64,000 bases of DNA from Raillietiella orientalis (Eukaryota). The stretch's first letter is position 1; every line of letters starts with the position of its first letter. Made by a program: the position numbers and the translations under genes. The stretch is from NCBI GenBank assembly GCA_036172245.1, contig JAYWIR010000016.1, positions 2,542,001-2,606,000 of the forward strand. Reading direction: 5' to 3'. The notes below the pieces were generated by a model. It was not told the DNA's origin, ran no database searches, and was given only the letters and a program-made list of their open reading frames with translations. Positions 41,900 to 45,758 of this stretch are shown piece after piece.

Positions 41900-44800
41900 A
41901 TGGTGTATGGGTCGGACCGAGGAGTGGGATACGTCACTTTAATATGTGGCATATCTCTCTGGTTGTACTATAGCGTTTGGTTGATCATATTGGTGAGTCA
42001 ATTTGAAAAAAAAAAAAAATGTCTTTCACCTCCAATTGAGGTTTTCTGAATTTTTGTTGTAATGCCGGGGACGTTTGCGAAATTAGTAGGAGACGAATTT
42101 GTTTGCGCTGAGGGTGATTCGATGGTCGTTTTATGCACGATACAACCATACATTAGCTACCTTTATGGCAGTTGAAATAGAAAGGAAAGGAAATCCAATG
42201 ATCAAGGTATGCAAAGTAGTTGCCTGGATAATCTTTGAATTATAATTCTGCTCCTTCAATTGAACGTGATGGGTGGCAAGTCGGGTTCTGATTTATAGTG
42301 AAGGAGAAAGGCAAGGCATTGGTTTGTACCACCACTTTACATCACTCTAGAAAATCGAATAATGGAGCTCATGAAGATTATCAGGAAATATTGAGAAGTG
42401 TTACACAAAACAGCTTAGAATTCCGCTGTGCTTATCTAGCATTTTCTTATGCCACCATACAGAACTCTCAGCAGTACATTATGAATAATTGATAAAAAAT
42501 ATAACCATGAATTAATACACATTTATTAAGTGTTTATAATATGTTCAGTTGCGCATCTTAGGCTTCTGTGTGTTGGAAATCTTGTTTTTTAAAAGTTTGC
42601 GGCGTATCATGTTCTTCCTTTAGGCTACTTGTAGTATGAAAACTAAAATCATCCCTAATTAAGTATGAAAATTTTAAATAAGTTGTACTAACATCGAGCG
42701 CTTACTGTTCAGAAATGAAAATTTTTTGGCTTTCAATTTCGTTAAAGTGGTACAGATAGGAATAATAGCAATGCAAATAGTGCTTCATCAAATAAACCCA
42801 TTTTTTCACTTCCTTGAGTTTAATAACATGCTGAACTTCAAGCTTCAAACATTTTTAATTGAAATTACTTGAAATAAACTTTGACAATACAAAAATTCTT
42901 TATGGTAGTGAACAGGGAGTTTTAGGAAAAATAGCAATAAAAATAAAATGAAATAAAAAAAGGAAATTCCAAGTTTTAGAAGGATAGATCCATTTGTGAT
43001 GTATGATGTATTGCAGATCAGGGTAGTGATCGTTATTCATGCATGTTGTGTGATAAGACAAAAATAAAAAAACCTATTCAGAAAATTTGCCGATAATCAT
43101 TTCATACATTTTTCAAAAATAATTTGATTTCTTAACATTCTTGTTACTATTTATGACAATATCACAAACTTTATATCTTTGAACATTACCATTGATTGTT
43201 TGCATTGTCATAATATTTCTAGTTAATTTGTATTAGCAGTCTTATAATTTGTGTATTATTTGAGGATTTCAATAAACTGCAGTGATTAATCCAGATTTAG
43301 ACAAATTCAGGACGAGGGTGCAATAATAATGAATGTTTTCTTCAAGAAGTAATGTTTCAATTTAGTTTTGCTGAAAGCAAAAGTTTTCTGCAAAAGTCCT
43401 TGTTTGCAGAAAAACTTTTGCTTGGAAAATAAGAGGGACCAACATTGAAATGGGATTTGGGAAATATGGCTATACTTTCACTTACAGAACAGTAAAATCT
43501 AAAAACATCAATAGTCTGTAAGTTCTTTTCAATGTAGCCAAGTATGCACCCAAACATTTTTTCATGTAAGTTTGTTTGGTGTCATTCAGGTATTTTCCTT
43601 ATGTGAAGAAGAAATAATGAAAGTATTTACATACAGTAACAGATAGAGTGTAATTTCCGAGATTGGGCATTTAGATTGCCAGTGAAGATCATGCAGTTTT
43701 CAGAAGACATAAGTCTAAGAATTCCATATCAGTGGAAAAAATAATTGCATTTTGTATTTTGAATATTTCTGAAGTAATTTTTAGTTTCAATGAGTTCTGA
43801 ATAGGTGTGATGTTTCTCCCTCGAGGAACTCGTTGTTGAACTTGTTTTATCAAATAGTATTGGCTGCCAGAATATTTTGCATCTTCAGTCCACACTCGGT
43901 AATAGCAAATAGAGATTTCCTACAAATATTTTAAACAGTTGAATTTAAATGTCTTGCTAAGCTTCACTGTTTGCTGCTGTTGCACAGAGCTTTTGATTCA
44001 AGAGCATTGGGAACTTCAGATGAATATGAATCCCATTTTACTTTCTCATTTAAACTTAGCAGGAAAACAAAAAGTAGAATGGTTGGGAGTAAAATGTGTT
44101 ATAAGCAATAATAAGTATTTTTGTCCTGCAAATTTTTTTCTTGGTATTCCCTGTATTAGTTATTTGCTTAAACATTTGAAAATTAAAACTTTCCAAATAT
44201 TGGCATGGGGAATGCTGTAACTTATGTATATCTGTTGCAGCATCACATTGAACCACAGGAATGTGTAAAATTGTAGGTTGTAAGTCTTCAATCTTTGGGC
44301 CTAGATTTATCAGAGGTATGGTGGAAACTCAAAGTAACTAGATCAAATGAATTCAACATCTGTAGAGTGCACTTTAATCCTTGATAATGGGTAGAAAGAT
44401 GTGAAACTGTTACAAGGGATGTGAATGACTGATTATGGTTTATGGTTCTTACATTTTAGGGAAAATAAGTTAAGTGCTTCAATTTTTTGTCTTGATTAAT
44501 CTTACATTGAAGCAAACATTTGATTATGTTTTCACCAAAAATGTGCTTTTTGTTGTCATTGCACTAAGATGTGCATTCTAAACCAAAATTGAGATACTGA
44601 TTTCTAATTCTAGTAAATTTGAAGCATGTTAGCTCTCATTCTTCACAGCATTTGTATGTGATGTCTGCTATCAATCCAGCTGATTTAGTGGCCAAACTTA
44701 CTCAGCAGAGGGACTGCTCCAGAGCAGCTTGTAAAAAATGTGGCTATAGTGGACATTTAACTTATCAATGTCGTAACTTTCTGAAAGTCAACCCTAATCG

Positions 44801-45395
44801 TGACATTATTTTGGATGTTAGTAGTACTAGCAGTGATACTGATGAAGAATATATCACTCCATTGATTGAATTAAGGGAAAAAGAATTATCAAAAAGAATT
44901 CTCAAAAATGCAATGAAACGCAAAACTCAGCAGGATCATGGGCACCCAAAGAAAAAGAAGAAACATGATACAAATGATGGCAGTGATTTGCACCATAAAA
45001 AGCATAAACGCAAAAAGTCAACACATAGTTCAAAAAGTTCTAATACTGATAGTGAAGACAAACATTCGAAACATAAAAAACACAGTAAAAGTTCCAAAAA
45101 GAAAAAAAAAAAAAAGAAAAATGAATAAGCACGAAAAAGTTTCTTATTAACAATATTGCATATTTTACTTATCAATTGGAGAAGTGATTTCTTTTTTTTA
45201 TTGCAGCCATTTGTAGATAATGATCAAGTTCTTCATATATTTTTTGCATCACCGTTCATAGCTCTTTGTCTTCCAGTATATACTGGATTCCTCATCCTTT
45301 GCATTATAGGTAAGTCCCTTGAACCTTTGTATCTATCTGTATTTGCTTGTTTATATTTGTTAGGCATTTACTTGATTCACATAAAGTTTAAGTAG
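41900..45395 (+). CDS. DPM2: Dolichol-phosphate mannose synthase regulatory subunit 2 (75 aa)
   Basis: Exons 41900-41992, 45207-45309, 45364-45395 give [75 protein letters not shown]. This matches the DPM2 pattern (D..VG....YY..W.ILLPF.D..H.IH..F) with two TM helices. Confidence 0.85.
44661..45128 (+). CDS. SREK1IP1: SREK1-interacting protein 1 (155 aa), single coding exon nested in DPM2 intron 1 on the same strand
   Basis: Zinc knuckle [39 protein letters not shown] followed by a K/H/S-rich tail; splice acceptor ttcttcacag at 44639-44648. Confidence 0.9.
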
Positions 45396-45396
45396 T

Positions 45397-45729
45397 ATGA
45401 AACGTTTGTTGAAAATTCTGTTTTCTAAAGAATCCATTTATCAAGTTAAGACTACTTTTGCTACAGCATCAAAAGAGTCTTTGAGCAAACCTTTGTCCTA
45501 TCAAAATAGTGAAGCAGCCAGATGGAAAGCCAGGCAATCTTTTGGGGACAGCACATTCCAACGTTTGAACTGGCCTTGGTATCAACCCTATGTTGTAAGT
45601 TTTAGTGCAGGATCATTCATGGTTTATTTTTTTCTGTTACGTGAAGAAAACGATATTGATCAGCAGCTCTCATTACCTTTAGAACATTATTTGCCCAATA
45701 TTGAAAAACCCTCCCAAAAGCATATGTAA
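45397..45729 (+). CDS. UQCC4: CCSMST1/C16orf91-family small mitochondrial membrane protein (complex III assembly factor UQCC4), 110 aa
   Basis: Basic N-terminal targeting-like peptide, PLSYQNSEAARWKARQSF, PWYQPYVVSFS....YFFLLREENDID family motif; the stop overlaps AATAAA (45729-45734). Confidence 0.8.
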   Translation: MKRLLKILFSKESIYQVKTTFATASKESLSKPLSYQNSEAARWKARQSFGDSTFQRLNWPWYQPYVVSFSAGSFMVYFFLLREENDIDQQLSLPLEHYLPNIEKPSQKHM

Positions 45730-45758
45730 ATAAAACTTTATAGGCAATCTTTGTTGCT

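Follow-up and report, generated by a model that had tools for sequence, protein, structure and literature searches.

Three unrelated genes, DPM2, SREK1IP1 and UQCC4, closely packed in what may be one transcription unit of Raillietiella orientalis

Three intact open reading frames (ORFs) for the unrelated housekeeping genes DPM2, SREK1IP1 and UQCC4 lie between positions 41900 and 45734 on the forward strand of a 64,000-nucleotide stretch of the Raillietiella orientalis genome (contig JAYWIR010000016.1, positions 2,542,001 to 2,606,000; here called the window, with its own coordinates used throughout). At least two of these genes, and probably all three, appear to share a transcript. Taken as a whole, the locus could well be one compact RNA polymerase II unit of about 4 kb, with three genes and a single 3' end, although we put this forward tentatively. 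ORFs, protein families, splice-site sequences, spacings, the poly(A) hexamer map and the CpG profile were read directly, and what is said of RNA and of translation is inferred from them. An earlier note on this DNA had proposed that DPM2 exon 1 splices either to SREK1IP1 or to DPM2 exon 2, and that both mRNAs continue into UQCC4. Its coordinates all held when the sequence, splice sites and ORFs were read again; a third DPM2 exon is added here to the two that it named. The features are as follows, with a slash marking each splice point.

41600-42200, no strand: CpG-rich, GC-richer island around DPM2 exon 1, the presumed promoter region
41900-41992, forward strand: DPM2 exon 1, 31 codons, phase 0; donor TTG/GTGAGT at 41993
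41993-45206, forward strand: DPM2 intron 1, 3214 nucleotides (nt), containing the SREK1IP1 ORF
44625-44648, forward strand: putative 3' splice site CTCTCATTCTTCACAG/, with the SREK1IP1 ATG (44661) 12 nt downstream
44661-45128, forward strand: SREK1IP1 ORF, a single coding exon of 155 amino acids (aa), wholly inside DPM2 intron 1 and on the same strand
45129-45206, forward strand: spacer from the SREK1IP1 stop to DPM2 exon 2, 78 nt, ending in the T-rich tract of the exon 2 acceptor
45207-45309, forward strand: DPM2 exon 2; acceptor TTATTGCAG/, donor TAG/GTAAGT
45310-45363, forward strand: DPM2 intron 2, 54 nt, GTAAGT...TTAG
45364-45395, forward strand: coding part of DPM2 exon 3; acceptor TTTGTTAG/, stop TAG at 45393-45395
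45397-45729, forward strand: UQCC4 (CCSMST1 family) ORF, 110 aa; ATG 1 nt past the DPM2 stop (TAG-t-ATG)
45729-45734, forward strand: first canonical poly(A) signal, AATAAA, overlapping the UQCC4 stop TAA (45727-45729) and followed by a T/GT-rich stretch
45758-45763, reverse strand: AATAAA belonging to the convergent gene WDR46/BING4, with 23 nt between it and the forward-strand signal

All DPM2 splice junctions are canonical. The acceptor of exon 2 (TTTTTTTTATTGCAG/, ending at 45206) is strong, and ranked first among the 48 YAG sites of intron 1 by a crude pyrimidine count. Splicing yields a translation of 75 aa, which is the length of the Pfam PF07297 model. Scored separately, exon 1 matched profile positions 1-27 (21.7 bits, E 2.5e-4) and exon 2 matched positions 28-61 (18.8 bits, E 2e-3; 28-63 when read through). 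Each piece alone falls below the cut-off of 27.3 bits, but the two matches are contiguous exactly at the splice junction, and it is on these separately scored exon pieces that the product is assigned to PF07297. It shares 37.5% identity over 48 aa with a DPM2 exon in a metagenome locus, L062, described below. Two hydrophobic stretches are visible in the translation, and DPM2 is predicted to be a small two-helix membrane protein of the endoplasmic reticulum (ER) that stabilises DPM1/DPM3. Intron 2 is itself in frame and free of stops, within a read-through ORF at 45129-45395; its retention would add 18 residues in the region of the second membrane helix, neither truncating DPM2 nor shifting its stop.

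UQCC4 was identified by PF15013 (78.3 bits, E 5e-22, profile positions 2-73 of 74; cut-off 26.1), and it has the features of the CCSMST1 family profile, a hydrophobic helix and, after it, the LREE-D motif. A search gave 257 homologous representatives at E<=1e-3, the nearest being three mosquito homologues with 42-46% identity. The human protein C16orf91/UQCC4 is a mitochondrial complex III assembly factor (PMC11586608). The ORF described here has a basic N-terminus, and a role in complex III assembly is predicted for it from its family.

DPM2 and UQCC4 are non-overlapping ORFs on the same strand, with no promoter and no poly(A) signal between them, and their spacer of 1 nt is too short to hold either. 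If a DPM2 mRNA ended earlier, it would need a non-canonical poly(A) site inside the UQCC4 ORF. The mature three-exon DPM2 mRNA would then be a DPM2-UQCC4 dicistronic mRNA, which the layout strongly implies and which we regard as very likely.

We considered how UQCC4 might be translated from such an mRNA. The DPM2 start codon has a weak context (gtgcATGg), with U at -3 and no purine, and that of UQCC4 has A at -3 (tagtATGa). Three AUGs lie between the two starts; all are out of frame, and the ORFs that begin at them are 11, 9 and 13 codons long, with the third ending 81 nt before the UQCC4 AUG. Ribosomes bypassing the weak DPM2 AUG could reach the UQCC4 AUG directly, or could reinitiate there after translating one of the three short out-of-frame ORFs. 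A further route would be reinitiation after termination at UAG-U-AUG. Inspection by eye of the spliced sequence before the DPM2 stop and UQCC4 start found no UGGGA motif like that of a termination upstream ribosome-binding site (TURBS).

SREK1IP1 matched PF13917 (zf-CCHC_3) with 31.8 bits against a cut-off of 27, and has the N-terminal CCHC zinc knuckle, the conserved acidic/Ser stretch and the Lys/Ser-rich tail of its family. Homology at E<=1e-3 was found for 319 of 362 candidates; among the best 120 of these 319, the named ones are mostly SREK1IP1 or SREK1IP1-like, and the closest are insect proteins, 60-78% identical across the conserved half. This sequence was one of 16 in an alignment with 37 invariant columns, and it keeps all of them. 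No identical protein was present in a collection of 5.8 billion sequences.

The 3' side of SREK1IP1 suggests that its RNA does not end there. Its stop, ending at 45128, lies 78 nt before DPM2 exon 2 with no AATAAA between, both as the earlier note had said, and the spacer also lacks ATTAAA and all 11 single-base variant hexamers that were scanned. AAAAAG, which was outside the 11-variant scan and which we take to be a weak poly(A) hexamer variant, was seen in the spacer by eye. The hexamer scan found no AATAAA or ATTAAA on the forward strand from 44600 to 45728; for these two hexamers, and from 44600 on, the claim that the only clear poly(A) signal follows UQCC4 (45729) thus stands. SREK1IP1 is separated from the first such hexamer by 600 nt, compared with 2-194 nt in insect-type SREK1IP1 loci (10 loci from five lineages, L001, L002, the L003 group, L005 and L023). 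Lacking a terminator of its own, its RNA would continue through DPM2 exons 2 and 3 to the poly(A) site behind UQCC4. A convergent gene closes the unit: a BING4CT domain is encoded at 46158-46301 on the reverse strand (E 4e-15), and the terminal exons of WDR46 were assembled by eye. Since the WDR46 poly(A) signal is 23 nt away, the forward-strand unit must end there, at about 45750, and an overlap of a few bases between the two 3' ends is expected.

The simplest reading of this anatomy, and a likely one, is that SREK1IP1 RNA runs on through DPM2 exons 2 and 3 and UQCC4 to a common 3' end. The absence of hexamers contributes little to it: DPM2 intron 1 holds eight AATAAA or ATTAAA in 3214 nt, the last at 44182, and at this rate about 1.5 would be expected in 600 nt, with a probability of about 0.2 of finding none. 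The case therefore rests on layout and not on statistics. Geometry is the stronger point, namely the 1-nt spacer, the 78-nt spacer that ends at a strong acceptor, and the convergent gene that closes the unit.

The anatomy also bears on the possibility that the three genes give three independent monocistronic mRNAs, with internal promoters, some within intron 1 and others within or close to DPM2 exon 2 or intron 2, and with non-canonical poly(A) sites after SREK1IP1 and DPM2. A minority of arthropod genes do use non-canonical hexamers, and variants are found near the SREK1IP1 end, AATGAA at 45120 and the AAAAAG of the spacer. The DPM2 poly(A) site, however, would have to fall inside the UQCC4 ORF, given the 1-nt spacer, and a promoter for UQCC4 alone would fall in DPM2 coding exons or in the 54-nt intron, where there is no CpG peak. 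We consider separate mRNAs improbable.

Run-on and translation have to be kept apart. For DPM2 and for SREK1IP1 alike, the anatomy supports the earlier claim that both mRNAs continue into UQCC4. In an RNA that begins with SREK1IP1, however, the UQCC4 AUG lies 214 nt and 14 AUGs past the SREK1IP1 stop, so UQCC4 would hardly be translated from it, and delivery of UQCC4 by this form is doubtful.

If the locus is one unit with one 3' end, SREK1IP1 would be a gene with a single coding exon, nested in DPM2 intron 1 and opening at a 3' splice site; it would then need an upstream exon. The candidate acceptor ending at 44648 tied for second place with four others among the 48 YAG sites of intron 1 by the same crude count. 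A pyrimidine tract and AG also lie 1-23 nt before the SREK1IP1 ATG in L001, L002 and the L003 group of the insect-type loci; in L005 and L023 this is doubtful. An intron in the 5' untranslated region (UTR) of SREK1IP1 thus looks ancestral, again with an upstream exon needed. Between the candidate splice site and the ORF (CATTTGTATGTGATG from 44649) there is a minimal start-stop upstream ORF, ATGTGA at 44656-44661 on the forward strand, its final base doubling as the A of the SREK1IP1 ATG (ATGTGATG).

The upstream exon may come from the same CpG-rich promoter region, either as DPM2 exon 1 or from a nearby start site. Counts of CpG were 19 in 41801-42000 and 8 in 42001-42200 (observed/expected ratio 1.2), the only cluster in 41600-46400; each 200-nt bin from 42201 to 46400 held between 0 and 4, and 44001-44600, just before SREK1IP1, held none. 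DPM2 exon 1 is the simplest donor. Joining exon 1 to 44649 preserves the reading frame without a stop and gives a predicted 190-aa product of DPM2 residues 1-31 and SREK1IP1, and by sequence both acceptors are plausible; this is the frame continuity seen in the Su(var)3-9/eIF-2gamma type of locus. Other possible sources of a SREK1IP1 5' end are start sites past the DPM2 AUG, a non-coding exon in the CpG-rich zone, and the donor at 43566; intron 1 offers CAT/GTAAGT at 43566 and, in the CpG-rich zone and found by eye, AAG/GTATGC at 42208. On this evidence the chances that SREK1IP1 is transcribed from the DPM2 promoter region seem evenly poised.

A stricter model, that of the earlier note, has exon 1 itself spliced to either 44649 or 45207. 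SREK1IP1 would then be made as a fusion protein, or as the plain protein if transcription begins past the DPM2 AUG or ribosomes skip it. Of the donors, that at 41993 alone belongs to a known exon; the acceptor at 44648 ranks near the top for this intron, the reading frame crosses the junction without a stop, and one CpG island spans the region. A shared N-terminal exon has a precedent in Su(var)3-9/eIF-2gamma (PMC4528330). Against it, the fusion would place the first DPM2 membrane helix, which resembles a signal anchor, ahead of a nuclear-type protein, and no DPM2-like N-terminus was found in SREK1IP1 homologues (best 120 of 319). By chance about one junction in 3 would be in frame, and the intron holds other donors, such as those at 43566 and 42208. 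Strict use of exon 1 is thus a minority prospect, although a substantial one.

SREK1IP1 could instead be an ordinary nested gene that keeps the common 3' end, with its own promoter and a non-coding first exon in intron 1, or with an unspliced start near the ORF. Nested genes are common in arthropod introns, the donors at 42208 and 43566 would be candidates, and a TCATTC hexamer at 44636-44641 is a candidate initiator-like element. The 2.4 kb ahead of the ORF, however, show no CpG relief, and the presence of a good acceptor so close to the ATG (12 nt), as in insect-type loci, speaks against an unspliced start. We rate an ordinary nested gene as unlikely, somewhat more so than strict use of exon 1.

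The same acceptors could also be used in another way, in an operon-like transcript resolved by spliced-leader (SL) trans-splicing at 44648 and 45363 into capped monocistronic mRNAs for SREK1IP1 and UQCC4. They lie 12 nt before the SREK1IP1 AUG and 33 nt before that of UQCC4, and the 33 nt from 45364 contain no AUG. From its protein matches the organism was placed among pancrustaceans, probably as a hexapod, and some crustaceans trans-splice. Trans-splicing is not known in insects, however, and it is to insect proteins that SREK1IP1 and UQCC4 are closest among the matches listed. An Rfam scan of the 64-kb window returned no SL RNA, only two U11 matches. A classical operon should have a poly(A) hexamer ahead of each acceptor, but there was none within 460 nt before 44648 and none before 45363. 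Within the window, then, neither an SL RNA nor the upstream poly(A) signals of an SL trans-spliced operon were found, and this explanation is very improbable.

It is also conceivable that the working genes lie elsewhere in the genome and that one or more of these ORFs is a redundant or silent copy, in which case the tight packing would have no functional meaning. The coding parts of UQCC4 and SREK1IP1 are free of introns, and the UQCC4 C-terminus is shorter than in most homologues. On the other hand, three frames are intact, the 37 invariant SREK1IP1 columns are kept, and PF15013 is matched with 78 bits; a single-exon SREK1IP1 coding region is the norm in insect-type loci. No poly(A) remnant or target-site duplication was seen by eye at the locus. 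Redundant copies therefore seem quite improbable.

Several results weigh against one unit with one 3' end. Besides the modest odds on the missing hexamers and the awkward helix and unmatched N-terminus of the fusion, the CpG argument presumes that promoters in the R. orientalis genome are CpG-rich. UQCC4 ends about 35 aa before most homologues, lacking their C-terminal helical tail, and an exon for this tail was not found in the 64-kb window. The DPM2 ORF is not depleted of AUGs (3 observed versus 4.2 in shuffles, P 0.38), and 75 codons are long for efficient reinitiation. Conservation speaks the same way. In a metagenome scan for SREK1IP1, 300 stretches matched, 130 were confirmed and 80 were kept as loci (340 kb). 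UQCC4 was near SREK1IP1 in none of the 80, as judged with a hidden Markov model that scores the window UQCC4 at E 3e-34. A tblastn search of the same loci with DPM2 gave a sole match, in L062, on the opposite strand and 6.4 kb upstream. No DPM2-like part was found by phmmer in UQCC4 representatives (best 150 of 257; best E 0.5), and none of 16 long UQCC4 representatives contained PF07297. On synteny, which the earlier note had named as a check, the arrangement DPM2-SREK1IP1-UQCC4 is conserved in 0 of the 80 SREK1IP1 loci, so the SREK1IP1 part would be lineage-specific. At least 10 arthropod-type loci extend 870-9770 nt past SREK1IP1 without DPM2 or UQCC4.

The DPM2 gene of L062 (1700-2087, reverse strand) is a true one, with 36.9 bits to PF07297, and the SREK1IP1-type gene of that locus is at 8537-8993 on the forward strand. 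Other genes lie between them, including one resembling tRNA isopentenyltransferase, named by eye from its ORFs. This proximity is either a remnant of an older linkage or chance in a compact genome.

The SREK1IP1 loci also include a different pairing. In several, a KDM8/JMJD5-type ORF comes next after SREK1IP1 on the same strand; it matches Cupin_8 (E 2e-39) and ARM_KDM8_N. No introns interrupt the two ORFs in L004, L009/L010 and L019; the same order occurs with introns in L062 and L070. The pairs are found at these positions:

L004, 73-1829: SREK1IP1-KDM8, spacer of 11 nt
L009, 121-1920: SREK1IP1-KDM8, a variant of L010 with a shorter SREK1IP1 frame and a gap of 159 nt
L010, 132-1618: SREK1IP1-KDM8, the two ORFs overlapping in ATGA
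L019, 352-2150: SREK1IP1-KDM8, spacer of 5 nt
L062, 8537-10828: SREK1IP1-KDM8, with introns
L070: SREK1IP1-KDM8, with introns

As in R. orientalis, SREK1IP1 is upstream in these contigs, with little or no spacer to an unrelated ORF and no terminator of its own. They differ in the partner, a JmjC hydroxylase, and the intron-free contigs may be RNA or DNA. No KDM8 match was obtained in the 64-kb window, and we found no paper on a SREK1IP1-KDM8 pairing. The pair is a possible conserved dicistron in other eukaryotes, and SREK1IP1 seems to be a recurrent first cistron without a terminator.

The boldest form of our proposal takes all of this together. It posits a tricistronic unit with one promoter and one poly(A) site, in which the choice of 3' splice site would set SREK1IP1 or DPM2 as the first cistron and UQCC4 would be made from the DPM2 form by leaky scanning or reinitiation. 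SREK1IP1 would be, in arthropod-like lineages, a recurrently terminator-less upstream cistron of differing partners (KDM8 or DPM2/UQCC4). In this complete form we consider the proposal rather doubtful.

Transcripts of this general kind are well documented in Drosophila, and the locus described here is a probable further example of the class. In FlyBase, 159 dicistronic pairs are recorded along with 7 tricistronic and 2 tetracistronic sets, 130 genes that have a common promoter and 5' exons, and 14 with common 3' UTRs (PMC4528330). Like the R. orientalis locus, the Drosophila dicistronic loci place unrelated small housekeeping ORFs on the same strand, very closely spaced and served by one poly(A) site, and their second ORF must rely on scanning or reinitiation. 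They differ in resting on cDNA, RNA-seq and start-site data, whereas the present locus was read from DNA sequence. A search of 11 of the 12 supplementary files of PMC4528330 gave no occurrence of Dpm2, dolichol, SREK1IP1 or CCSMST1, although entries there may carry CG numbers alone. We found no literature linking DPM2, SREK1IP1 and UQCC4 in one transcript among search hits represented mostly by their abstracts.

Three characterised systems come closest. The Drosophila genes sloth1 and sloth2, orthologues of SMIM4/UQCC5 and C12orf73/UQCC6, are bicistronic with a spacer of 5 nt and a weak first Kozak context, and leaky scanning was demonstrated by reporters (PMC9681215). Both loci have as their downstream cistron a small complex III assembly factor of mitochondria, a predicted one in our case; both spacers are very short (5 nt versus 1 nt), and in both a weak upstream AUG context is followed by a better one downstream. 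The sloth genes, however, are paralogous partners in one pathway whose pairing is kept from choanoflagellates to lamprey (PMC9681215). DPM2 and UQCC4, by contrast, are unrelated and act in different compartments; no conservation of their pairing was found, and the upstream ORF contains three internal AUGs.

PYURF, a mitochondrial protein, provides a second parallel. PYURF-PIGY is a characterised human bicistronic transcript (PMC13303939). PIGY is a subunit of the glycosylphosphatidylinositol (GPI)-N-acetylglucosamine (GlcNAc) transferase (GPI-GnT) complex, and DPM2 too is listed as one (PMC11419382). Both transcripts would thus join a small mitochondrial protein to a small ER-membrane subunit of the GPI-GlcNAc transferase. 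In PYURF-PIGY the mitochondrial ORF comes first, unlike here, and the genes and the lineage are others. We see no functional reason for pairing ER glycosylation or GPI synthesis with mitochondrial assembly, and no conservation that demands one.

The third system, Su(var)3-9/eIF-2gamma, resembles the SREK1IP1 side of the locus. Its two proteins have a common promoter, start codon and 80 N-terminal residues, with coding exons in common (PMC4528330). In both cases one gene has apparently landed in an intron of the other, and alternative splicing from common 5' exons gives, or here would give, two unrelated proteins; the exon 1/44649 junction is likewise in frame. The 80 residues are documented in both Drosophila proteins, whereas the fusion is here a possibility, and a functionally awkward one.

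If the three genes do share a transcript, gene predictors would tend to miss or mis-join them, with UQCC4 hidden in the DPM2 3' UTR and SREK1IP1 taken for a DPM2 isoform, and knocking down any of them would affect the other two as well. The locus would also offer a compact natural test of how a first ORF of 75 codons permits translation of a second one 1 nt downstream.

The surrounding window is a mosaic in composition. Positions 1-9000, 20200-26700 and 53600-64000 have 55-72% GC and a CpG observed/expected ratio near 1, and these GC-rich blocks hold ORFs resembling long interspersed nuclear elements (LINEs) and part of an ANKFN1/wide-awake-type gene, an exon of which has its best matches in an isopod, a bee, an amphipod and flies (54-66% identity). 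The two U11 small nuclear RNA matches (25315-25443, 80.9 bits, and 21070-21244, 47 bits, both on the reverse strand; gathering score 39) are inside a GC-rich block with reverse-transcriptase-like ORFs. The region from 27000 to 53500 is AT-rich (27-40% GC), CpG-depleted and gene-dense, and includes BUB1, a gene of the MRP-L28 family (PF09812), DPM2, WDR46 and Roquin. The strong depletion of CpG in gene bodies suggests DNA methylation.

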